Below, piece by piece: positions 9,256 through 62,287 of a DNA stretch of 64,000 nucleotides (position 1 is its first letter; each line of letters begins with the position of its first letter). A program made the translations under genes and the position numbers. Under the pieces are notes generated by a model, which worked only from the letters and a program-made list of their open reading frames with translations, ran no database searches and was not told where the DNA came from. This stretch comes from Escherichia phage SKA64: sequence record OM362897.1; one strand, given 5' to 3'.

Positions 9256-9864
9256 ATGAAACTTGTGCACGGTGTTGGTGTTAATGATGCAAACTATCCG
9301 ATCAGGGTGCAAGATAAGGTTACGGGGAAGAGAGTCATGTGTCCTTTCTATCTAACATGGTCAAATATGTTAGGCAGGTGCTACCTTAAAAATAAGAGAT
9401 TTGAAGCTTATACAATGGCAGAAGTTTGTGACGAATGGAAGATCTTCAGTAACTTCAAAAGCTGGATGGAAAAACAAGATTGGCGGGATAAATTTTTAGA
9501 TAAAGATATCCTCTTTGAAAATAATCTTATATACTGTCCAGAAGCGTGCATTTTTGTTCCTCGTGAAATAAACAATTTCATTGTAGCAAGGAAGCCACAA
9601 AGGGGAGAGTGTTTGATGGGAGTAAGAACAAAAGGTCCATCTTTTGCTGCCAATTGCAGAGATGGGATTAAGGATACTCTTGTTTACCTTGGAACCTTCC
9701 CTACACAGATTGAAGCACATATGAAATACTTAGAGTATAAACTACAACTTCTTAGAGACTTGATTAGAACCGTAGAAGATGATAGATTACTTTTAGGATT
9801 ACGAAGAATTGAAAATAAGATAATCTTAGCCTTATCTTCAAAAACACCAATAGAAAGTTTTTAG
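9256..9864 (+). CDS. AP2-domain DNA-binding protein, possible homing-endonuclease-associated
   Basis: Segment GVRTKGPSFAANCRDGIKDTLVYLGTFPTQIEAH looks like an AP2 domain of the kind found in phage HNH-AP2 endonucleases. No clear nuclease motif seen. Confidence 0.4.
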   Translation: MKLVHGVGVNDANYPIRVQDKVTGKRVMCPFYLTWSNMLGRCYLKNKRFEAYTMAEVCDEWKIFSNFKSWMEKQDWRDKFLDKDILFENNLIYCPEACIFVPREINNFIVARKPQRGECLMGVRTKGPSFAANCRDGIKDTLVYLGTFPTQIEAHMKYLEYKLQLLRDLIRTVEDDRLLLGLRRIENKIILALSSKTPIESF

Positions 9865-9872
9865 GGGGTTAT

Positions 9873-10217
9873 ATGAAAGTTTGGATAGATGATATGAGGA
9901 ACCCAGCCGACTACGGACAGGCAGATGCAATTTGGTTTAAAACGTCACAAGAAGCTATGGCGTTTCTCAATGATCCTGCTAAACTGTATCGAAGAGTAAC
10001 CGAGTGGTCCTTTGACAACGATTTGGGTGAAGATTCTGACCAAGATGGGTATGATGTTTTCCTGTGCTTGGAAGAACTTCTGGCGTTTGGTAAACCTTGC
10101 TTTGGTTCACCTACCATTTTCGTGCATACTTCTAATCCCGCCGCTGGGGATAAATTCATGCTTGCAAAAGAATCCATGCTGCGTTATGGTATTAAAATGA
10201 TTCGTGTGCACTATTAA
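9873..10217 (+). CDS. hypothetical protein
   Basis: 114-aa ORF in the operon-like array. Confidence 0.35.
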   Translation: MKVWIDDMRNPADYGQADAIWFKTSQEAMAFLNDPAKLYRRVTEWSFDNDLGEDSDQDGYDVFLCLEELLAFGKPCFGSPTIFVHTSNPAAGDKFMLAKESMLRYGIKMIRVHY

Positions 10218-10376
10218 GGAGAGAACATGCATCATTCGGTTTGGTCGGAACAAGAAGAGGACGAAGGTTATTTTATCTACCGAGAAGAAGAGGATTGGCC
10301 CGACACAAGTAATGATCTTTTACTTCCAGATACTAGTTTTATCGAGGATAACTTAAGAGAGGAGGATTAGGAAACA

Positions 10377-10733
10377 ATGAGTGGTATTGAAAACAATATT
10401 TGTTACCAACCTCTTACCTGGATGGGTGAGGGTCATTATGCGCAACGTGTTATCGTCTGTGCTGCAAATAAGTATATTTTGAATAATGGTGAAGAGTTAA
10501 TTATTCCTTGTGTTCGACATGCAAATCCTGTATTATCTGCACAATTGAACGTATTGAAAGAAGCAGGTGTTCTTGATAAAGTGCATTGTCTTCCAAACAA
10601 TCAAGGTTTTATTGATCAATACTACAATTGGTGGAGTCGTGAAGATGCATACATTATTGCAAAACACGCAGACCAGATTGACTACGAACGTAATGGTCAT
10701 GATCGTGACCTATTTAGCGAGGGATTATACTAA
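10377..10733 (+). CDS. hypothetical protein
   Basis: 118-aa ORF. Its stop overlaps the next gene's start. Confidence 0.35.
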   Translation: MSGIENNICYQPLTWMGEGHYAQRVIVCAANKYILNNGEELIIPCVRHANPVLSAQLNVLKEAGVLDKVHCLPNNQGFIDQYYNWWSREDAYIIAKHADQIDYERNGHDRDLFSEGLY

Positions 10734-11284
10734 TGTTTATTACAAGCGATTTGCATTTTATGCACAAACGTATACGAGAGTTTGCTCCTGAATATCGACC
10801 GTGGGAAGATATGGACCACATGACAGAAGCACTGATCGAAGCATGGAATAAATGCGCTACGAGTCCAGGTGTCAAGATGTGGCATTTGGGTGACTTCTGT
10901 TTCGGGACTGAAGAAGATACCCGTAAGATTGCTTCCCGCCTCCAAGGTGATATCACTTATTGTGTTGGGAACCATGATTACAGCAAACACCGAGAAGTGC
11001 TTGCAGAGTATGGAGAAGTGGTGTATTATGACGAAGTGAAATATCAGAAGCTGTTCTTCGTCTTAAGCCATTACCCTATGGCCTCCTGGAATAAGCAAGG
11101 TCGTGGATCAATCATGCTACACGGGCATTCCCACGGATCTTTCCCTGATGAAGCTTATGGTAAAATGTTAGATGTGGGTTGGGATGCACACGGAAAAATC
11201 TTACATTTTGATGAGATAATTTCTATGATGAGTAAACGAGATATCGTAACTGTAGACCATCACAAAATAATCAAAGGAGAGTAA
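10733..11284 (+). CDS. calcineurin-like metallophosphoesterase (candidate RNA 3'-phosphatase)
   Basis: Motifs SDLHF, GDF, GNHD, GHSH. Sits directly upstream of the RNA ligase and kinase genes. Confidence 0.6.
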   Translation: MFITSDLHFMHKRIREFAPEYRPWEDMDHMTEALIEAWNKCATSPGVKMWHLGDFCFGTEEDTRKIASRLQGDITYCVGNHDYSKHREVLAEYGEVVYYDEVKYQKLFFVLSHYPMASWNKQGRGSIMLHGHSHGSFPDEAYGKMLDVGWDAHGKILHFDEIISMMSKRDIVTVDHHKIIKGE

Positions 11285-11285
11285 T

Positions 11286-12218
11286 GTGGCTAAATTTAAT
11301 TGCGACGATTTAGTTGAAAAAGGTTTAGTTCATAAGAAAACATATAAAGAAGGAGAGTATTCTGGTCTATCTGTTCTTAAGTATAAGAACAAAGTTTTCT
11401 GGGATAACCTATGGAACATTGATTCTCGTCTTCTAGAATGTCGCGGAATCGTTGTTGACGCTGATGACAATGTTGTTATTTGGCCTTTCACTAAGATTTT
11501 TAATCGTTTTGAGAATGGCACAGATCTACCAGCGGATGAATTTGTAGATGTTGTTCGTAAAGTAAATGGTTTTATGGCCTCTGTAGGTGTATATAAAGGT
11601 CAACTTATCGTATCGACAACAGGAAGCCTTGAATCAGATTTTGCAAGTATTGCAAAGAATCGTATTGTTTCAGAGTGCGATGACATAGAACATTTCATCA
11701 AATGGACAGAGAGTGCAAAAGCAACTTTCCTTTTTGAAATCTGTGATCCTTCTGATCCGCATATTGTCGAAGAAGAACCAGGTGCATACTTAATTGGTGC
11801 CAGAATTCAAAATCCTGACGGGACAAGTTTTATGTTACCTGAAGGTGCTCTTGATGGAATTGCTTCTGTCACCAAATTTAAGCGTCCTGAAGTTCATCCA
11901 ATGGTTAAGTTTTCAGATGTTGTTGAAATGTCTAAACATTGTAAACACGAAGGGTTTGTAGTTCGTGAAACAAACTATCCGTTCAACTTACTTTTAAAAA
12001 TTAAATCACCACACTATCTTACTAAGAAGTTTCTTATGCGCGGTGGAGATAAAAAGTGGGATCTGATTTGGGATAATCCACAAAATGCCAAACAAATTGT
12101 TGACGAAGAATATTACGCTTTGTTAGAATGGATTCGAAATAACTTTACGAAGACTCAATGGGCTGCTTTAAATCAGCAAGAGCGACGTGAAAAAATCGAA
12201 AACTTCTTTGGAGGATAA
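11286..12218 (+). CDS. RNA ligase, T4 Rnl1-like
   Basis: LLECRGIVVDADDNVV, PFTKIFNRFEN and lysine motif VRKVNGF resemble T4 Rnl1 (from memory). GTG start. Confidence 0.6.
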   Translation: MAKFNCDDLVEKGLVHKKTYKEGEYSGLSVLKYKNKVFWDNLWNIDSRLLECRGIVVDADDNVVIWPFTKIFNRFENGTDLPADEFVDVVRKVNGFMASVGVYKGQLIVSTTGSLESDFASIAKNRIVSECDDIEHFIKWTESAKATFLFEICDPSDPHIVEEEPGAYLIGARIQNPDGTSFMLPEGALDGIASVTKFKRPEVHPMVKFSDVVEMSKHCKHEGFVVRETNYPFNLLLKIKSPHYLTKKFLMRGGDKKWDLIWDNPQNAKQIVDEEYYALLEWIRNNFTKTQWAALNQQERREKIENFFGG

Positions 12219-12623
12219 ATGAAACAACTTATCATTTTACGTGGCGTTTCAGGTGCTGGTAAATCTACGGTAGCAGAAATTATTTCTGAAGGTTATTGGC
12301 CTATCTGTGAGGCAGATCAATATCATTACACAGAAAGTGGTGTTTACGATTGGAAGCCAGAAAATGTAGGTAAAGCACACGCATGGTGTCAGAGTATTGT
12401 TCGTGATGCTATGGCATCTAATCTTAACAAGATTATTGTTTCTAACACTTCAACCACAGAGAAAGAACTTAAACCTTATTTAACTCTTGCTGAAGAGTTT
12501 GGTTATCAAGTTATCTCTTTAGTTGTTGAAAATAGGCACGGTAATGATTCAATTCACGAGGTTCCACAATATATTCGTGATCAGCAAGAGAAGCGTCTTC
12601 GTGGTTCACTTAAACTTCAATAA
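12219..12623 (+). CDS. P-loop polynucleotide kinase-like protein
   Basis: N-terminal Walker A ILRGVSGAGKST. Size and context match a 5'-kinase module of a Pnkp-type repair set. Confidence 0.55.
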   Translation: MKQLIILRGVSGAGKSTVAEIISEGYWPICEADQYHYTESGVYDWKPENVGKAHAWCQSIVRDAMASNLNKIIVSNTSTTEKELKPYLTLAEEFGYQVISLVVENRHGNDSIHEVPQYIRDQQEKRLRGSLKLQ

Positions 12624-12632
12624 GGAGAAATA

Positions 12633-12956
12633 ATGCAGATTTATACAGATGATCGTAAATATGAGACAATTTTAGATGAAGATACTGGACGAATTACCGT
12701 TCTCCGCCACGGTGAAGAGTGGCGTGATGAAACGGGAGATAATTACATCTTGTCTCTGATTCATCTTATTGAACAAATGCGCGATGATTACGCTGAACTC
12801 CATTATGAAAATGAGGCGAATAAAGTAAAATTTGAAAATGAGTTAGAAGAGAAAGAATCCGAAATGGTATATCTAAAAGAAGAGATCTCTCGTTTGGAGG
12901 AAGAGATTGATGCTCTTCAGGAAGAGATTTACGAACTCATTAAGGACGGATTATGA
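12633..12956 (+). CDS. hypothetical acidic coiled-coil protein
   Basis: 107-aa ORF rich in E/L heptad-like repeats. Confidence 0.35.
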   Translation: MQIYTDDRKYETILDEDTGRITVLRHGEEWRDETGDNYILSLIHLIEQMRDDYAELHYENEANKVKFENELEEKESEMVYLKEEISRLEEEIDALQEEIYELIKDGL

Positions 12957-13144
12957 AAAAAGATATCGTTGTTGTTGGTTGGCTGACTTGCCCTTGTGGT
13001 AGTAATGACATAACTGTAAACACAGAGGGTGATAAAAATTATTTATTCTACGGTGATAAAATCACTTGCAATACCTGCGGACGTGTTGGTATTATAGAAA
13101 CCGATGATTGCTGCGTTTTTGAATCTTGGGATGAAGATGAATGA
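12953..13144 (+). CDS. hypothetical zinc-ribbon protein
   Basis: 63-aa ORF with CPCG...CNTCG. Confidence 0.35.
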   Translation: MKKDIVVVGWLTCPCGSNDITVNTEGDKNYLFYGDKITCNTCGRVGIIETDDCCVFESWDEDE

Positions 13145-13349
13145 GTACTGCATTTTATGTTCGTAGTGGGGACGAGGATTTTCTAGCTACTTTTGATGAC
13201 GGTGATCTTGAAGATATGTATGAAGATATGTTTGACTATGCCAAAGGGCAAGGTTTCACAAGCATTGATTATATGTTGGCAACATCTACAACGTTACTCG
13301 ACGCAGATTTGGATGAAGTGTGTAACAGATTGAAAATTTCAGTTTTTAA

Positions 13350-14477
13350 ATGGGAGGACTAATGCAACAAACAAATCAAACGCTGTATGGTAAAGATTCA
13401 AAAGGAAAACTTAAACAGTGGACAGTGTATACAGATGGTGCAGTTGTTACTGTAGCTCATGGAAGGGTAGGTGGAAAAATCACAGAAAAATCTTATACAG
13501 CAGAAGCAAAAAACATTGGTCGTTCCAATGAAACAACACCGGAAGAACAAGCTGAACTTGAAGCTTTTGCCAAATGGACAAAACAGTTAAAGAATGGCTA
13601 TTATAAAACAAAAGAAGAAGCTGAAAACCATGTTCCTTCCACACCAATGAAATGCCAGGATTATAAAGATTATCCTGAAAGGGTTGTGTTCCCTGGTTAT
13701 GCACAATACAAACTGAACGGGTTACGTTCTATGATTAACATGAAAGGGGAGTGTTTATCAAAAGCTGGGGAAGTGTATAACCTGCCACCTCATTGGAAAG
13801 GTATTCCAAACTTTATTAGTGAAGTTGTTGGTCATCCTCTTGATGGTGAAGTGTTTGCTGGGTTAGGTGTCCTTAGTCTGCAACAAATTAACAGTGCCTG
13901 GAAGAAGCATAATGCAAATACACCTTTGCTGAATTATTACGTATATGATATTCCAGTTCCAGATCTACCGTTTGAAAAACGTGTTGATGTTCTTGCTGCT
14001 CTTAAGGCAGTAGTTGAAGATTATGGTCTTGACGAGCTTATTTGCGTAGTTCATACAGAGTATATTGAAAACCAAGAACAGTTTGATGCTTTCTATGAAA
14101 AAGCTTTACTTGAGAAAGCTGAAGGTGTAGTATATCGTAATGCTCACGGAGTTTACGAATTTGATAAACGTTCTTATGACGTTATTAAACGTAAGCCTCG
14201 CCACACCCTTGAAGTTAAAGTAACAAATTCAAAAAGTGATAAAAATGGTGATGGAGTGTTGACAGGTGAGATGGAAAATGGTAAAGTAGTCGAATTCTTA
14301 ATGCGTAAAGATGCTCATGAGACTATCAATTATCGTAAAGCAGAGAATGCTTCTACCTTGATTAATCAGTTCGTTGAAATAGAGTATGAAGAATTTTCAG
14401 ATGAAGGTATTCCAACAAAACCTGTTGGTGTTCGTATTCGAGAAATGATCCCAGGCACTTGGGAACCAGCAGAATAA
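13350..14477 (+). CDS. ATP-dependent DNA ligase (nucleotidyltransferase superfamily)
   Basis: Motif I-like KLNGLR, and a C-terminal GVVYRNAHGVYEFDKRSYDVIKRKP segment resembling T7-type ligase motif V (from memory). Confidence 0.55.
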   Translation: MGGLMQQTNQTLYGKDSKGKLKQWTVYTDGAVVTVAHGRVGGKITEKSYTAEAKNIGRSNETTPEEQAELEAFAKWTKQLKNGYYKTKEEAENHVPSTPMKCQDYKDYPERVVFPGYAQYKLNGLRSMINMKGECLSKAGEVYNLPPHWKGIPNFISEVVGHPLDGEVFAGLGVLSLQQINSAWKKHNANTPLLNYYVYDIPVPDLPFEKRVDVLAALKAVVEDYGLDELICVVHTEYIENQEQFDAFYEKALLEKAEGVVYRNAHGVYEFDKRSYDVIKRKPRHTLEVKVTNSKSDKNGDGVLTGEMENGKVVEFLMRKDAHETINYRKAENASTLINQFVEIEYEEFSDEGIPTKPVGVRIREMIPGTWEPAE

Positions 14478-39178: not shown

Positions 39179-39188
39179 TAAATAATAA

Positions 39189-39208
39189 CCCGCTTCGGCG
39201 GGTTTTTT
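39189..39208 (+). terminator. rho-independent terminator
   Basis: CCCGC-TTCG-GCGGG followed by TTTTTT. Confidence 0.6.
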
Positions 39209-43619: not shown

Positions 43620-43975
43620 AGAGCGTCTCTGTTCGATTTAGGTGGGTTCTAGCTTACTTGTGCAGTGCTCTCTCGTATAACTCAATGATCAATTCATCCT
43701 CTACTGTAATACGCGCCATTTGATCCGTCTTGAGTATTGTTGGTTGGTAGTGGTGCATTTCACTATTGATACTACAATCCCATTCGTCATAACCTAAATA
43801 CTCTCCTACATGGACCTTAACCATAAAGGGAAACGGGTTATCTACCAAAAATGCCATACAACCTTCTTCGATTTTATTTAACACACGACCTCCTATTGCT
43901 ACAGATATGAAAAAACCCGCCGAAGCGGGTTCTATTGCTACGATAGGATCACTATCCTATAGTATTGTTTCTGTG

Positions 43976-48045: not shown

Positions 48046-48432
48046 TTAACCCCATTCATACTGTGCTACCTTTTCTTTTACCCAATCTACACGATCTTTA
48101 TCATAATGTTGAGTGCCAAGGAAAAGACCATTGTGGAAACTTTCCTCACCGAAAGGATAAATTAGATCTAAACCATCTTCTTCAAACAACATTTTTAATC
48201 TGTTTGATGTAGATTTCTTAGTTTCTGAATTGTAGTTTGTGGTTATAAGCCAATCTTCCAAACAACGACACAAGCCTTGACGAGAATCCCAAGGAAAAAC
48301 ACAATCTCCGACAGGAGCTTGTTCCGCCCATTTCAACCAACCTTTAAAAAAGTTATACAATATGTAGTCTTCAGTGTAATACATTAGCGCCTCCTTTACA
48401 TATACAATAACACCCCGCAGAACGGGGTGCAA
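48046..48432 (-). CDS. hypothetical protein, paralog family A member
   Basis: Shares W...GLC-x-CL...YPF...R-x-x-WV pattern with five other ORFs in the block. Confidence 0.4.
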   Translation of the reverse strand: MHPVLRGVIVYVKEALMYYTEDYILYNFFKGWLKWAEQAPVGDCVFPWDSRQGLCRCLEDWLITTNYNSETKKSTSNRLKMLFEEDGLDLIYPFGEESFHNGLFLGTQHYDKDRVDWVKEKVAQYEWG

Positions 48433-48435
48433 CTG

Positions 48436-49047
48436 TTATTTAATCTGTTTGAAAATTTCGTTTGGAACAGTACCGTTTAAAATACCTTCTACGATCTCCT
48501 GTGCAGACGTGTAAGAGAGTCCAAAAGAAGCTACGCCTAAAATTGCCTCCTTCAAAGGATCTGGCAGGGGTTCAAAGTTACCTGCAACAAAGCCACCTGC
48601 ACAAGCAGCGCCTTCATCATCCCAGAAAACAACTGCTACATCGTTACCATGCGAAGTCGTGCGATGTGCAATAACTTCAACTTCGGTGCCTTCTTTAGGA
48701 ACAGAATAAGAACTGTCCCAAGAATATCTTTCCAAATCAGGAACAAAGATAACCTTTTCACCTACTGGCGGCAGTTCACAACGATAATACCAAGAATTTT
48801 TTTCGTTCATTGTTTTATTTTCCTCCACGTCTTCAAAAGTAACGATCCAATCGTAGCCGTAAGAAAACGGATATTTTAGATCTAAAGAATAAGTTTGACC
48901 CAGATCGTCCTCAACAAGAACCATCCTATCAAAGTTTGCGATGTTAGGATTATGTTTAATGACAGGGTATGTTTCCCCTACAGTAAATTGTCCCAAATGG
49001 TAAAGTTCATCTCTCCAAGTAATTTGGATATGAGTGCATTGAATCAT
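48436..49047 (-). CDS. hypothetical protein
   Basis: 203-aa ORF. Confidence 0.4.
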   Translation of the reverse strand: MIQCTHIQITWRDELYHLGQFTVGETYPVIKHNPNIANFDRMVLVEDDLGQTYSLDLKYPFSYGYDWIVTFEDVEENKTMNEKNSWYYRCELPPVGEKVIFVPDLERYSWDSSYSVPKEGTEVEVIAHRTTSHGNDVAVVFWDDEGAACAGGFVAGNFEPLPDPLKEAILGVASFGLSYTSAQEIVEGILNGTVPNEIFKQIK

Positions 49048-49323
49048 AAAATCACCCCCAAGAAATATTTATATATCTTACAATGTTTGCACTGTCTAAA
49101 GCCATGTTTGCACCACACCCACGCTCGCGCCAGTAACTAACAATACCTTCACAGATACTCTCTTGTATCTTCTTATCACTTGGCATTTCTAGTATAAGAT
49201 TTGGGTTATGGATGTTTATGTTATAATATCCTTCCTCTGCGGCTTGAGCTACCAATTTACTTACTTTTTCAAAGTACGGGGAATTAGTGGCATCTGCTAT
49301 TGTTTTTAAGGTTTGTCTATCCA

Positions 49324-49722
49324 TTATTCTGCCTCATCATAGAAGAAATCCAACTCTTGTTCCAGTTGTTTAACTCGATCCTTAACCCACTGTACACGTT
49401 TTTCATTAAACATGCAACGTTTTTCCTTACACTCTTGCTCAAAAGATTTTGCTGTGTTAAATGGGAAAGTTGTATCTAAGCCAGCGTTTTCAAAACTGGC
49501 TAATTGCATACCATAAACAGAATATGCTAAAGAATGCTCGGCCCGAAATTCATCACTTATATACATACGTAGACCTCGGCATAAGCCAACATCAGCGTAA
49601 CCACTTTCTCTTGGAAAGAGACGGAGGTGTTCTAACCAATTATTATAGAAATCTAAAAGAATCCTCTTACACTTCAAATCGATTGTCATAAAAAGTTTCT
49701 CCTTCATCGAACAAGTTGGCAA
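49324..49722 (-). CDS. hypothetical protein, paralog family A member
   Basis: FYNNWL...GLCRGL...AGLD..FPFN...RVQWVKDRV. Confidence 0.4.
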   Translation of the reverse strand: MPTCSMKEKLFMTIDLKCKRILLDFYNNWLEHLRLFPRESGYADVGLCRGLRMYISDEFRAEHSLAYSVYGMQLASFENAGLDTTFPFNTAKSFEQECKEKRCMFNEKRVQWVKDRVKQLEQELDFFYDEAE

Positions 49723-50089
49723 GATTGTTCACGGCAATCTGGGTGGAAAGAAGACAACTGTTTGCAGACACATAAGCACGAGCTATTTTGTAAACATAGG
49801 CTTTCGTATTACAATTGTCTAGGATCGGAAGACTTTCGTCGATAGCATCTATAACACTAAACATCACATCTAAAACTTTAATGGTGAGTGTTGTATTTGT
49901 ATCTTCGTAACCTTTTTCAATCCGACCTGAATAGAAAGCATAGTCCTCAACAGTTCGTCGTTTAAACTGGCGCATAAAATCGGAACCATCTGTAGCAGAA
50001 TTGAACAAATTTTCAAAAAATACGTCCCATCCGGCAAAAAGGGCTGACAGCATGATTAAGTGATCTACAGATTCATTTTCTTGTTTCAT
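49667..50089 (-). CDS. hypothetical protein
   Basis: 140-aa ORF. Confidence 0.35.
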   Translation of the reverse strand: MKQENESVDHLIMLSALFAGWDVFFENLFNSATDGSDFMRQFKRRTVEDYAFYSGRIEKGYEDTNTTLTIKVLDVMFSVIDAIDESLPILDNCNTKAYVYKIARAYVSANSCLLSTQIAVNNLANLFDEGETFYDNRFEV

Positions 50090-50097
50090 ATCCTCTC

Positions 50098-50775
50098 CTA
50101 TTTAATGTTCAGTCTGGCACACAAACGAGAAACAGTTTTAGCATCCCATTTACCACCACGTGCTGTTGCTATTTTCTTACTATTGAATTTTTCAGCAATA
50201 GTTTTGTAAGGTGTATTTAAATCTCTAAGGATCTCCAAGCGTTCACGGAATGTCTCTGCAAAAGCGTCTGCTTTAACAGAGTTGTATTCCATTTTTCCTT
50301 TTCTACGTGCAGCGGCAGTTTTAGGATTAGCACTGCCTAATAAAACACCTTTGCTTTTTGCTACAGCAAGACCCTTTTTAATACGATCAGCAATACCTCT
50401 AACTTCTTGTTCAGCCAGAACAGACAGAAGCTGTATAACCATTTTATCTGCGTCTGGCATAATGGCTATCTTAACATCGATCATTTCTAGAAGAGTTGCT
50501 ACGGAGGCGTTATTACGACCCAAGCGGTCAACTTTAGCTACCAATAAAGTTGCTCCGGTAGCTTTACACATTTCAACCGCTTTAACCAGTTCCTTACGTT
50601 GCTTCCAATCGCCCTTACCCGAATAGTATTCAGAAAATTGACCAATAACTTCCGCATCAGGCACAGAGTCTAAGAAGTAACGGATATCATTCTCTTGGCT
50701 CTCCATACCATATTGTGCCTCACCTTTTTTCTGTTTAGAAAGACGACTGTAAACAACAAACTTTTTCATAACCAC
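50098..50775 (-). CDS. small serine recombinase (resolvase/invertase family)
   Basis: VVYSRLS (catalytic Ser region), LLVAKVDRLGRN, LLSVLAEQEVRGIADRIKKGL, C-terminal HTH-like region. 225 aa. Confidence 0.65.
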   Translation of the reverse strand: MVMKKFVVYSRLSKQKKGEAQYGMESQENDIRYFLDSVPDAEVIGQFSEYYSGKGDWKQRKELVKAVEMCKATGATLLVAKVDRLGRNNASVATLLEMIDVKIAIMPDADKMVIQLLSVLAEQEVRGIADRIKKGLAVAKSKGVLLGSANPKTAAARRKGKMEYNSVKADAFAETFRERLEILRDLNTPYKTIAEKFNSKKIATARGGKWDAKTVSRLCARLNIK

Positions 50776-51052
50776 TCCTAAACCATTGCTGTATTCTCAC
50801 TTTACAAAACGAATAAACACTTGTCAAGGTATTTATTATTTACAGCCATTCTACTCTTAAGCAGTATTCCTCGACATGTTGTTTACGCTTGTTTTTGTCT
50901 ATGTAAGTGTATTCAACAAATGTCCCAAGATAGTCCTTGTCTACAGTGTGTGGGCTATTGATTGGACATTTAGTACGACAAACCCGTTGCCACTGACGAA
51001 GAATTACGGCTTTGTTTTTAGGATCAAATGGATGAGGGTAATGTACCTTCAT

Positions 51053-51376
51053 TCACGCCCCCTGTTTTAGTCGAAAAATATTTTGAATAACTAGAGATGT
51101 ATAGTTATCACCTAGTCCCATAAGTTCTACTTCCAAGTTTCTAATATCTTCCACCGTAGGAGGATATGTTGGTAAAAATGCTTGAGCATTGCCAGATCCA
51201 ACCTCATTGCTGTAAGCAGTTGTAAAATTGTAAGATACAAAACATGAAACACCTTTTTGTCGGTACCCGATTAATCGACGAATACACCAGATAAGAGCTA
51301 AACCTATGAGAACACCTCCTAAACCAGCTAACAAGAAGGATAAGTTCATAATAGCTTCGTTAACAACTGCTTGCAT
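51053..51376 (-). CDS. hypothetical membrane protein
   Basis: 107-aa ORF with hydrophobic N-terminal segment NLSFLLAGLGGVLIGLALIW. Confidence 0.35.
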   Translation of the reverse strand: MQAVVNEAIMNLSFLLAGLGGVLIGLALIWCIRRLIGYRQKGVSCFVSYNFTTAYSNEVGSGNAQAFLPTYPPTVEDIRNLEVELMGLGDNYTSLVIQNIFRLKQGA

Positions 51377-51696
51377 TCTTTTCTCCTTAGTTATGTAAAC
51401 CCAAATGCGCTACAACTTCCCTACGATAAGATAACTGCATAGCGATTTTATAGCCAGGATGAAAACCATTTACATCAATGTCATCAAACCAAACCTCAAA
51501 CGAACCGTGCTTAAGGGTCATTAAGTTGATATACCATTCGATAGTATAATGATCGTTAGCAATACCTTCGATGTAAAACTCTCGGCAACAATGAGATAAA
51601 TCTTCACTTGTTTCACGTTTCCAGTCTTTGATAGCACCCTTCTCTTTAGCTTTATTCAGAATGTGGATCAGGTCTTCAACTTGCATATTCTCTCCT

Positions 51697-52251
51697 TTAG
51701 TTCCAACTAATAATGATGTGTTTGATAATCCCAAAAACACTGTGCTCTGCGGTTGCCAATGTTACATCCAAACCTTTTGCACGTAGCATTGTAGCTACAA
51801 CATTTGCCCCTCTTTTCTGCTCACTTATCTGTTCATAAGAAGAAGGGTTATTGCACAAACCAAAACTGGAAGGTTCAAAGTATTTTTCAAACTTCCCTTG
51901 TTCCGCACAATCTTCAATCTCTAATAGAACGGCGTCTACCATTTCAGTAAAATGGGAATTTGCTTGCAGTGCTTTATTACGCAGTTTATCACGTAAACTT
52001 CCCGTAGATTCTTCCTGCTCTTCTGTCTGTCCATCTTCACAGAAAGGATGAAGTTCAGCCCAGTCCCAAGCATCTCCTTCTAAAGCAAATGGAGTGTTGT
52101 AATTGAAGAAAGTGCAGCGCGGATATTCCCCGTTGAAAGAATCTTTCAGCAGAATATATTTCTTACCGTTTGCATGGAAGAGTTCTCCTTTGATAACCTT
52201 ACCTACAAGGATATCACTGTTAGTGGAACGGGTGCAAATAAATTTTTTCAT
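51697..52251 (-). CDS. hypothetical protein
   Basis: 184-aa ORF. Confidence 0.35.
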   Translation of the reverse strand: MKKFICTRSTNSDILVGKVIKGELFHANGKKYILLKDSFNGEYPRCTFFNYNTPFALEGDAWDWAELHPFCEDGQTEEQEESTGSLRDKLRNKALQANSHFTEMVDAVLLEIEDCAEQGKFEKYFEPSSFGLCNNPSSYEQISEQKRGANVVATMLRAKGLDVTLATAEHSVFGIIKHIIISWN

Positions 52252-52758
52252 GATTTTCTCCTCTTTGTTTCGATGAGATGATTATGACAAAGACAGATCC
52301 TTCTGTCAACTATTTATTTCCATTCCCCTTGGTGTTCTTTGATCTCATAAGAGTAGTATTCGAACATGCTCATACAAACCACACCAGACATTTCTAAACA
52401 AAGAGGTTTACTATTATAAAAGGCACTTATCATTCTTCCAGCTTTATCTGCTGACTCTTTAGTATCACATCCGCAAACTGTTCTCACCCAAGGATTAGGG
52501 CCATCATACTTAAGACGCACAATCCACATGATCATTCTTCCATCTCAAACCATTCAGGGAACACTTTGCGGAAGACCCGCGTGTTTTCTAAGAGAAATTC
52601 CAACTCTTTTTCCAAATCTGCGTTCCAACCGTTTATTTTAACACGGATTGCCAATGCACTTGCACGGCGACTCAATTCTTGACAGATTGGATCACGCAGA
52701 ACTATTGAGTCATAAAACTGACAAACAGCCTCAAGTTCATACCAGTTATAATCTGACA

Positions 52759-53085
52759 TTATTCATCCTCCTCTGCAATACGATCTCTTACCCAATTAAT
52801 CCTGTCCACGTTCAGGTGACATACCTCTGCATCTGATTCTAAGACATATGCATCGTAGTTCTCATTGAAAGGGAGTGCTTGACTCAACCCTTTATAGTGG
52901 AACTGCGCGTGCATTTCATCTGATAAGGTCGTTATAATGGGGTTGTAATTGCCTCTGTGCACATAGTCGAATAAGTTGGCACACAAACCGCAATCCCGCC
53001 GAAAAGGTTTACCATCAGGAGCACCAACATCAATCCATGCTAGATAAATTTTATAAAACTCTATCAACCTTGCGCTTGTTTTCAT
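52759..53085 (-). CDS. hypothetical protein, paralog family A member
   Basis: FYKIYLAW...CGLCANL...KGLSQALPFN...RINWVRDRI. Confidence 0.4.
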   Translation of the reverse strand: MKTSARLIEFYKIYLAWIDVGAPDGKPFRRDCGLCANLFDYVHRGNYNPIITTLSDEMHAQFHYKGLSQALPFNENYDAYVLESDAEVCHLNVDRINWVRDRIAEEDE

Positions 53086-60164: not shown

Positions 60165-61727
60165 GATAATCTCCTCTCATCGTTAGCCATCTTTCATGGC
60201 AATCATCAATCACCAACATCATACGATCAATCTTAGGGAATTACAATCGAATTATCATAGGGGATTCCTATCAATTATCCCATATATACCGATTATTTTT
60301 GACACCCCACTCTTGTATAAAAAGTAACCCAAAATATCTACGGGGAGAGATTATTTCGGGACACCCTGTTTCATGGCAATCATGGCAAGAATATCTAATA
60401 GAATCAATATCATATGGCAAAAATCATGGCGCATACGTAAGAAGTGCTTAACGCGAATTTTCGGGCCGTCAGGTCCACGCAGCGACAATTCCCAAATATC
60501 ATGAGAATGAGAATAATTATCATTCGTATTCAATGACTTATGCAAGGCTTATGCCAACGTAGCGACAAGGTGGGCCACTTGATTATAAATCACACAAACA
60601 CTTATTTATCAATGGTTTGGCAACCTCATCATATGACGGAACAATGTCAACTGATCCCGCTCATGACAAGCAGACTATTATTTATATGAGAATGATTATT
60701 ATTTAAACGTTTATTAGCATAAAAACTAAAATAAATCAAGAATTTTCTGATTTTATTTACGTTTAAGAGAAGATGCTCAACATATCGCTACGCGATAGTA
60801 TTCGCCCCCGAAAGATTAGCCTTTATTTTCTTGTATGTTTATACGCTATGTGCACACTATGCAACCTGTCGCTATTCGCTCATGTTGCTACGTGCTAATA
60901 CTTCACCGTGCTAATGATCTTTGAGCGATAGCGATTATTTCATCTTGTAATTACCACAATGATTATTGTTATTGCGCTAATGTTATGATCTTGGTAATTA
61001 CATATAATGCTAATAATAAGCCAGCGCAATAAGTGTAAGCGTATTACGCTTGCAATTATTGCAAGCTACGCAGTAACAAGAAATAACCATCACCGATGGT
61101 TATGATTGTTGGGGTGTAGTTGGCTTATTATTAGCTCGCTATGTGTCCGGCATAGCGTGCTAATGATGACTCTGTGAATGATTCGTTTTGTAATGATTTC
61201 ATTTAGTCACTATTATGGCAATAGTTATTATTTTAATGGTTTCGTTTGTTATTGTTCGTTAGTTGGTTGTTTTGTCGTGTTATCGTTATCTTGCTTAGTA
61301 TTCATCATGGTTTGATTGTTTGTTGTTATCAATCATCTTGCTATTATTCCTTTGATTATGATTAGTTTGCTTATTGTTTTATGTTGTTTGTTGGTTAGTT
61401 GTTGCGAACTATTATCAACATTATAGTTATGCACTTATATTGCATAGATAAACATGGATAGATGATAATGGTTATCATTGCACTAGAAAGGAGGTAAAAG
61501 GGTGTTTTTGATGGTTTGTTGTTGGTTGTTGATCGATTTTAACCGCTTTAAATGGCTCTCTAACAGCCTGTTACCCTGGGAGGTATGGTTATTCATTTAA
61601 TGGTTGATTAGCTCGATACCGCGATCTATTCAGTTTTGTTCTGTGTCGGTTTTTCATAGGCGGAATCTATCAACATTATTCAGGCAAAAAGAAAGGGCGC
61701 TTAGTGCGCCCCTTGTTTTGTTGTCAA
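60165..61727. repeat. about 1.5-kb non-coding region with short repeats, palindromes and a GT-skewed tract
   Basis: No ORF of 60 aa or more except one doubtful 64-aa ORF. Repeats TTTCATGGCAATCAT (x2), GTGCTAATGAT (x2), GCGATAG-like motifs; palindromes at 61037-61064; GT-rich 61200-61440. Confidence 0.5.
61693..61714 (-). terminator. hairpin terminator candidate downstream of 61728-62147
   Basis: GGGCGC-TTAGT-GCGCCC flanked by A/T runs. Same sequence recurs at 62260-62276. Confidence 0.45.
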
Positions 61728-62147: not shown

Positions 62148-62257
62148 GATGTTGTCCTTTGTTTCGTTTCGTTGTTTGCTGCCAGTGAGTTAAATATAAT
62201 ATAACGCCGATCCCCTGTCAATAGGGGATAGCGCATTATTTACATTTCTTTACGTTA

Positions 62258-62279
62258 AAGGGCGCTTAGTGCGCCCCTT
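62258..62279 (-). terminator. hairpin terminator candidate downstream of 62288-62655
   Basis: Second copy of GGGCGC-TTAGT-GCGCCC, directly after the gene's stop. Confidence 0.45.
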
Positions 62280-62287
62280 GTATAATC

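Follow-up and report, generated by a model that had tools for sequence, protein, structure and literature searches.

The window analysed here, a 64,000-nucleotide stretch of Escherichia phage SKA64 (OM362897.1), carries on its reverse strand a gene for a small serine recombinase. The mechanically listed open reading frame (ORF) spans 50098..50775 (-) and encodes 225 amino acids (aa) from a GTG at 50775; the three strings quoted in the original prediction of a resolvase/invertase-family enzyme, VVYSRLS, LLVAKVDRLGRN and LLSVLAEQEVRGIADRIKKGL, all lie inside it. Because the Shine-Dalgarno sequence AGGAG (50779-50775) overlaps the GTG and an ATG comes 5 nucleotides (nt) later, at 50769, a 223-aa product is most likely. 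The same start is used in the annotations of NC_052654 and NC_020079, and a 223-aa database cluster (P0001) is 100% identical to the window recombinase. The predicted length of about 225 aa thus holds for the ORF, while the product probably has 223 aa from ATG 50769, a 6-nt start correction. Residues are numbered below (S13 etc.) according to the 225-aa version. The gene and the parts of its product are as follows.

50098..50769, reverse strand: serine recombinase coding sequence, 223 aa plus stop, placed by the ORF list, the Shine-Dalgarno position and the GenBank starts.
50344..50757, reverse strand: catalytic (resolvase N-terminal) domain including the long E-helix, from PF00239 and the AlphaFold model.
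50113..50325, reverse strand: predicted all-helical C-terminal DNA-binding module, aa 151-221, from profiles, alignments and Foldseek.

Membership of the recombinase family lies far above chance, and the observation of such a gene is confirmed: Pfam Resolvase (PF00239) matches aa 7-144 with 65.9 bits against a cutoff of 23.3, and PHROG 125, ‘DNA invertase’, matches at 1e-32. Across 30 aligned homologs, the most distant of which is 32% identical, Y9, R11, S13, R60, D83, R84, R87 and E124 are invariant. The catalytic set consists of the catalytic serine S13 with R11, R60, D83, R84 and R87; as counterparts of the conserved residues we take Y6, R8, S10, R45, D67, R68 and R71 of gamma-delta resolvase. 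Absence of the catalytic serine had been named as a reason to abandon the assignment; it is present in the phage protein and in all 30 homologs. An AlphaFold model built from the same alignment (mean predicted local distance difference test score 91.8) has the canonical fold, with an E-helix at 111-141 and C-terminal helices at 151-221. By sequence, the closest relatives of solved structure are the Tn3 and gamma-delta resolvases, and the family profile matches Gin, Sin and Tn3/gamma-delta at 1e-15 to 4e-18, with Gin highest (69 bits). The assignment to a small resolvase/invertase-family enzyme therefore stands, on PF00239, the intact catalytic serine, the fold given by the model and Foldseek, and the Gin/Sin/Tn3 profile matches.

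The C-terminal part is of another kind. Alignments to the Gin, Sin and Tn3/gamma-delta entries of the PDB end at profile position ~160 (Gin ~159), and the large serine recombinase (LSR) of SPbeta is the sole PDB family aligned through position 216; the top Foldseek match is Bxb1 integrase, over 259 columns. A Pfam search finds no match to HTH_7 (PF02796) even at E<=1. Positions 19-48 of PF07508 ‘Recombinase’ align with aa 189-218 at 18.2 bits, under the cutoff of 21.1, and the module as a whole corresponds to PF07508 positions ~3-52, the first part of the LSR ‘Recombinase’ domain. Homologs with 33-43% identity do reach the thresholds: two (P0046 and P0049) exceed the PF07508 cutoff with 31 bits, and two others (P0052 and P0057) exceed that of HTH_62 (PF20552, ‘Recombinase-like HTH’). 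The family shares the C-terminal motif IA..(F/L)N..(K/G)..T.RGG.W....V.R. Neither a zinc ribbon (PF13408) nor a coiled coil is found in the protein. Judged by its sequence, the enzyme is a small serine recombinase with a truncated LSR-type DNA-binding module and not HTH_7. The original statement that no large-integrase C-terminal domain is present is right as to the zinc ribbon and coiled coil and wrong as to the last 70 aa, which are a truncated first LSR ‘Recombinase’ subdomain.

The profile classification proposed at the outset was resolvase versus IS607-type. The IS607 type is excluded because the catalytic domain is N-terminal (from residue 7) and the DNA-binding domain C-terminal, and no TnpB-like gene is found among the neighbours; the HTH_7 of resolvases and invertases is not found either. 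The LSR class is excluded because the protein has only 223 aa and lacks zinc ribbon and coiled coil. The features of the Resolvase + HTH_62 class of small serine recombinases (~205-245 aa, PF00239 followed by a ~60-aa helical domain with IA..LN..G..T.RGG.W) are all present, membership resting on full-length homology because the C-terminal score of the query itself is sub-threshold. No experimentally studied member of this class was found in the literature.

The host genome is that of a virulent phage. The 5 kilobases (kb) around the gene are 96-99% identical to 64 records of Phapecoctavirus, the phAPEC8-like virulent E. coli myoviruses of ~150 kb in the subfamily Stephanstirmvirinae, and the window is the reverse complement of phAPEC8 3681-64726. 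The large terminase gene is followed along it by a tRNA cluster, then by genes of nucleotide metabolism and replication, and finally by an early-gene block. There the recombinase gene belongs to an extended series of short, closely spaced genes that share one orientation and have no assigned function; none of them is recognisable as an accessory or directionality factor. Its description as part of a lytic-type block is borne out by this unidirectional run of early-type genes in a virulent myovirus.

The protein is 100% identical in ~62 phage records, a reported value of 99.6% being due solely to the GTG codon, and the 13 nucleotide differences from Ro121c4YLVW are all synonymous. In diverged Phapecoctavirus-like phages it retains 75% (phiWec181) and 67% (Citrobacter Tr1) identity (67-74% in a second comparison), where the neighbouring genes mostly show 26-57% or are undetectable; it is the best-conserved gene of its neighbourhood. 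The Justusliebigvirus proteins are ~57% identical to it and those of large Klebsiella myoviruses 52-55%; the value drops to 35-38% for Vibrio and Shewanella phages of 127-149 kb, and to ~30% for some isolates of ICP1. The gene occurs in every Phapecoctavirus and Justusliebigvirus record matched, as well as in large virulent myoviruses of Klebsiella, Citrobacter, Shewanella and Vibrio. Zero amino-acid changes, and identity kept where neighbours diverge or vanish, indicate that the gene is selected and functional, and the comparison of sequences argues for strong purifying selection. In Schickermooser (MK373788) the gene appears disrupted, with six deletions within its first 230 nt. Over 3.65 kb of that record (9800-13452, window 48596-52277) there are, however, 15 deletion-only gaps that frameshift the recombinase and several neighbours alike, and part of the phages in that study were sequenced by PacBio RSII (PMC6563267); a natural knockout is rejected, long-read indel error being most likely. 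Several records carry unexpected labels, namely Campylobacter phage (B15, A145), Acinetobacter ABPW7, Pseudomonas PsgM04F and ‘Dompiswa phage’, and are 79-98% identical to the coliphages; these host labels may be doubtful, or the isolates may be contaminants.

The 64-base-pair (bp) spacer upstream of the gene contains two candidate elements.

50799..50827, reverse strand: sigma-70-type promoter-like site, TTGACA-17 nt-TAAAGT, with 10/12 matches.
50812..50837, reverse strand: imperfect 26-bp dyad, AATAAATAC-N8-GTGTTTATT, overlapping the -35 box and present as a single copy in the window.

A TTGACA/TTGACT-type element also stands directly upstream of the orthologs in six other lineages, and suggests that host RNA polymerase transcribes the gene early. 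The region as a whole shows no enrichment of promoter-like matches (44, against 36.8 +/- 6.1 after shuffling). The dyad is rejected both as an operator and as a crossover site, since 24% of shuffles give an equal or better one and it is not conserved in the six ortholog lineages; no conserved non-coding block exists upstream of the orthologs. In Justusliebigvirus (e.g. alia) and in Shewanella phage 1/40 the gene occupies a slot between HslV-peptidase and DprA-like genes, which is empty in Phapecoctavirus (phAPEC8 32.5-33.0 kb), where the gene sits in the early block. As slots differ between genera, the gene appears to have been relocated together with its own promoter.

Relatives outside large virulent phages bear on function. 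A full-length homolog with 35-40% identity is carried by 110 plasmids, of which 92 are non-mobilizable; plasmids of 5.8-6.4 kb carry little beyond RepA, a ParA-like gene and the recombinase homolog. The closest chromosomal homolog (Aeromonas, 42%) has a DUF5906 replication gene and a large serine integrase of 501 aa as neighbours. A second homolog shares its island with a tyrosine integrase, and a third, in a 33-kb phage contig, has a separate tyrosine integrase two genes away. IMG/VR contains at least 546 relatives. In all contexts examined the homologs look like the second, non-integrase recombinase of a circular replicon, a setting that resembles the classic one of multimer resolution. The word TGTTTAYT, which the phage dyad has in common with res-like repeats at the Aeromonas homolog, is absent from all other orthologs and thus coincidental. 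In a 5.8-kb Klebsiella aerogenes plasmid, a tight 34-bp dyad, TATCATTTGTTTGCCG-NN-CGGCAAATTTATGATA (4323-4356), lies ~35 bp upstream of the recombinase homolog; its geometry fits a candidate serine-recombinase crossover site, and it would be a good starting point for the site of the family.

Searches for a pair of sites gave nothing that could serve. Between 44 and 57 kb of the window only chance-level short matches are present, with no flanking inverted repeats within 13 kb of the gene, and a self-BLAST of the whole phAPEC8 genome yields as site pairs just promoter-like direct repeats and rho-independent terminators, one of them a thrice-repeated 20-22-mer (AAACCCGC-TTCG-GCGGGTTTT). The palindromic crossover sites sought at the suggestion of the original prediction thus found no support around the gene, upstream of it or as genome-wide pairs. 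Two terminators mimic a site pair in a repeat scan: AAAGGGCGCTTAGTGCGCCCCTTGT, perfectly repeated at 61692-61716 and 62257-62281, and AAACCCGCTTCGGCGGGTTTT, which occurs in both orientations (39187-39208 and 43910-43931) with a third copy elsewhere in phAPEC8.

It is tempting to propose, as a tentative reading held at somewhat less than even chances, that the recombinase acts on the phage’s own DNA at one site per genome, either resolving multimers or circularising DNA. The small serine recombinase would be made early, from a host-type promoter. Its substrate would be the DNA of the phage itself, with one site per genome copy, and two copies of the site would then meet only in replicative multimers or concatemers, or in terminally repeated virion DNA. 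Recombination between directly repeated copies would yield monomeric circles or close the incoming genome into a circle, much as plasmid multimer-resolution systems or Cre/loxP of phage P1 do. We infer the early timing, the phage DNA as substrate and the single-site logic of this scheme. The absence of a repeated site from the assembled genome is what it leads one to expect, because resolution and circularisation need one site per genome; under inversion or excision the same absence would be unexpected, because these need paired sites in the genome. An own-genome role is thus favoured by the absent site pairs, the housekeeping context of the homologs, the strength of selection and an expression that is probably early, taken together. 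The intact active site, invariant across the family, supports it, as do the lack of any inversion in ~70 genomes and of integrated copies in 5,426 E. coli genomes. Among the three roles first proposed (multimer resolution, an invertible switch and a small mobile element), multimer resolution is the most plausible.

Several points weigh against this proposal. No recombination site was found in the window dyad, in the ortholog upstream regions or at 75 family loci, where an upstream dyad reaches p<=0.05 in only nine cases, several of them terminator hairpins. Terminal-repeat phages package their DNA from concatemers, so that late resolution would be counterproductive. In ICP1 the gene is, from its genomic placement, accessory. 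The resolvase role of the plasmid homologs is itself read from their context. No experimental work on the gene was found in the literature, and the only published statement on it is a guess, a presumed resolvase mentioned in passing (PMC10282059). The related Vequintavirinae have similarly short terminal repeats (459 bp in Vequintavirus Gotham, PMC7471380), and they are absent from the recombinase matches listed; related subfamilies appear to do without the gene.

The genome ends offer one place where the required two copies could lie. A 328-bp terminal repeat has been reported in Schickermooser by Korf et al. (PMC6563267); in the record the first 329 nt equal the last 329 nt and map to window 60777..60449.

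60449..60777, reverse strand: direct terminal repeat marking the physical genome ends, mapped from the Schickermooser record.

Because the Schickermooser ends map there, the physical ends lie in this region and the window spans a concatemer-type junction with one copy of the repeat. Ends taken from the phiWec181 and VEcB records were rejected, these being arbitrarily linearised or lacking a repeat. The recombinase gene starts 10.0 kb from the left genome end, and a strong sigma-70-like promoter inside the repeat (TTGATA...TATAAT) is directed into the early genes. It is the only sequence present twice in direct orientation on virion DNA. Its 329 bp give little substrate for homologous circularisation, a point in support of the own-genome role.

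Next to the ends lies a 1.1-kb stretch (60545-61690) without an ORF of at least 50 aa and without tRNA or Rfam matches. It is strongly strand-biased, rich in short words and palindromes, and carries the repeated words ATTAGCAC and ATGAGAATRATTATYATT; phAPEC8, Ro121c4YLVW and muut, a phage of Justusliebigvirus, have equivalent gaps free of genes. The distal part of the stretch (61044-61700) is ~72% identical between Phapecoctavirus and Justusliebigvirus, with a block invariant at 29/29 positions (TGAATAGATCGCGGTATCGAGCTAATCAA, 61604-61632) and a palindrome at ~61045-61070, GCTTGCAA-N3-TTGCAAGC, whose arms are identical between the genera and whose centre differs. The conserved block forms the final kilobase ahead of the right-hand repeat, and the gene-free region, which lies immediately inside the right end of the genome, may equally be a packaging, origin or protein-binding region.

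On a Cre/loxP-like model the terminal repeat is a conceivable, hypothetical location of the recombination site. An unlikely, more specific form of the proposal is a Cre/loxP-like module of strictly virulent phages, made up of the recombinase together with a site that lies within the 329-bp repeat (60449-60777) or beside it, next to the gene-free region conserved between genera. Early after injection the two terminal copies would be recombined, so that the genome is circularised or joined head-to-tail independently of host RecA, which would compensate for the very short terminal redundancy. Were it true, this would be the first serine-recombinase-driven system of genome circularisation or concatemerisation in a lytic phage, common to Stephanstirmvirinae and the related Vibrio and Shewanella myoviruses. 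More generally, circularisation or resolution near the terminal repeat would add a new step to the replication cycle of large terminal-repeat myoviruses.

The enzyme might instead recombine, cut or rearrange a site in DNA that is not the phage’s own, be it that of the host chromosome, of a prophage or satellite resident there, or of a phage that competes for the cell, as an early enzyme of host takeover or counter-defence. The gene does stand among dozens of small unassigned early genes, a class that often includes anti-defence genes, and no target site is detectable in the phage genome. In isolate 2017_DRC_48 of Vibrio phage ICP1 (MW794144 14744-23478) a ~30%-identical homolog occupies an isolate-specific block between the old GP30 and GP41, the kind of accessory block that carries counter-defence genes. 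The protein is, however, invariant across phages from many E. coli, Shigella and Klebsiella strains, its homologs are found on plasmids and in phages whose hosts differ widely, and PADLOC gives no match, by which a component of a defence system is rejected as well. We know of no precedent for such an activity, and this alternative is accordingly doubtful.

Other genes of the region are noted here for themselves. Three paralogous small early proteins of phrog_2510 flank the recombinase on both sides (48046-48432, 49324-49722 and 52759-53085, all on the reverse strand) and share the motifs GLC..L and R(V/I).WV+DR. The protein encoded directly upstream of the recombinase, at 50840-51052 (-), has 70 aa and is a full-length DUF7202 match (PF23832, 127 bits). 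The tRNA cluster, at 3579-5501 (-) between the terminase/lysis genes and the replication module, comprises 10-11 genes (Met twice, Ile, Pro, Gln, Gly, Thr, Asn, Ser and Arg), the eleventh being a weaker Rfam match at 4720-4804.

A selfish or moron-like cassette, in which the gene and its promoter move between phage genomes with little benefit to the phage, would account for the position that differs by genus (HslV/DprA-like slot or early block), for the accessory state in ICP1 and for the predicted promoter that travels with the gene. Within Phapecoctavirus, however, the gene keeps one syntenic position in all ~71 records, shows no flanking repeats or target duplications, has not a single amino-acid change in ~62 genomes and is the best-conserved gene locally, so that a cassette of this kind is improbable. 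The small mobile element suggested originally is for the same reasons unsupported in this genus, though the gene is accessory in ICP1.

Recruitment to a function other than recombination, for example as a sequence-specific DNA-binding regulator or as a nickase at the genome ends or origin, would fit both the lack of a crossover-site pair and the conserved, protein-binding-like cis region at the genome end. All catalytic residues including the nucleophilic serine are nevertheless invariant, which mere DNA binding would not require, and such a role is a shade less probable still.

A DNA invertase of the Gin, Cin or Mpi kind, flipping a tail-fibre cassette or a promoter for phase variation, is suggested by the ‘DNA invertase’ name of the PHROG family and of several GenBank records, by the catalytic-domain profile, which scores highest against Gin, and by a weak NCBIfam match to Mpi (22.6 bits against a cutoff of 272). 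The genomes speak otherwise. The protein lacks HTH_7, all genes within ~7 kb to each side point the same way and are closely spaced, without flanking inverted repeats, and in the phAPEC8 self-BLAST the inverted pairs of at least 18 nt are rho-independent terminators, apart from one chance-level 18-mer. The 24.5 kb around the gene are colinear in ~70 genomes, the records matching in two places being those that start or end inside the query, and the 23-kb baseplate and tail-fibre module is likewise colinear (138 places in 134 records), by which a tail-fibre switch is rejected. Inverted repeats of 13-24 nt around a 97-bp segment at 61000-61144 could indicate a mini-inverton, but the segment has the same orientation in 70/70 records; all these orientations were read from consensus assemblies, which a minority orientation could escape. 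The Gin/Cin-like switch is thus disfavoured by the absence of inverted-repeat pairs and of any inversion in ~70 genomes, and an invertase has only a slight chance of being the answer.

Least probable of all is an integrase serving a cryptic lysogenic or pseudolysogenic option, for which it can be said that small serine recombinases can act as integrases (phiRSM) and that many IMG/VR homologs lie near contig ends, but which is countered by a sensitive blastn search that matched neither the gene nor its flanks in any of 5,426 complete E. coli genomes, on which lysogeny is rejected, by the lack of an annotated repressor or lysogeny module, and by the separate integrase that accompanies the homologs where checked.

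The last point has practical weight. phAPEC8-like phages are candidates for use in therapy, and a recombinase gene is routinely taken as a marker of lysogeny. The absence of an integrated copy from 5,426 E. coli genomes, the separate integrases beside the homologs in temperate elements and the lack of a lysogeny module argue that the enzyme is no integrase and that these phages need not be excluded on its account. The gene is not new: it has been annotated since the phAPEC8 record as a ‘putative site-specific recombinase’, and its architecture is covered by Pfam. The identical protein appears in GenBank under that name and as ‘serine recombinase’, ‘resolvase’ or ‘DNA invertase’. A mis-annotation as ‘methionine ABC transporter ATP-binding protein’ has been propagated through many records, among them LR597654, OR352956, MT496970, MW175890 and OR062524. 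What stands out is an invariant, strongly selected site-specific recombinase across a whole strictly virulent subfamily. If it does circularise or resolve the phage genome, a compact recombinase of 223 aa with an LSR-type DNA-binding module may also interest tool developers.

Comparison with known systems places the enzyme between several of them. With Gin, Hin, Sin, Tn3 and gamma-delta it shares the N-terminal catalytic domain, the same catalytic residues and the long E-helix, and it is of similar size (~220 aa, against 183-209 aa); those proteins carry HTH_7, whereas the phage gene has no adjacent invertible segment, res site or transposase and belongs to a strictly virulent phage. The Tn3/gamma-delta resolvases combine HTH_7 with a three-subsite res directly upstream and a transposase; the window gene has none of these, its upstream spacer of only 64 bp holding no significant dyad, and no transposase is found among its neighbours. 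The Gin/Hin/Cin/Pin invertases, of ~190 aa, have HTH_7 and inverted crossover sites of ~26 bp, neither of which is seen here. With the large serine recombinases (Bxb1, phiC31, TP901-1 and SprA of SPbeta) the likeness is in the C-terminal signature, the first part of the ‘Recombinase’ domain; these have 450-600 aa (400-700 aa for the class) with a full recombinase domain, zinc ribbon and coiled coil, and integrate by attP/attB, in contrast to 223 aa and no sign of integration. The closest relatives are the Resolvase + HTH_62 proteins of plasmids, integrative elements and phages, homologous over the full length at 33-42% identity with the same length and motifs; some of them pass the Pfam C-terminal thresholds, below which the phage protein itself stays.

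In function, P1 Cre is the nearest model, since it circularises terminally redundant phage DNA and resolves dimers. The likeness proposed to Cre/loxP and to plasmid resolution systems (RK2 ParA/res, Sin and beta) would be one of function only, namely one recombinase and one site per replicon. Cre is, unlike the present enzyme, a tyrosine recombinase, P1 is temperate, and a lox- or res-like site was not found in the window. The plasmid systems come closer in setting, the homologs of the window gene being located on mini-plasmids with Rep and Par functions.

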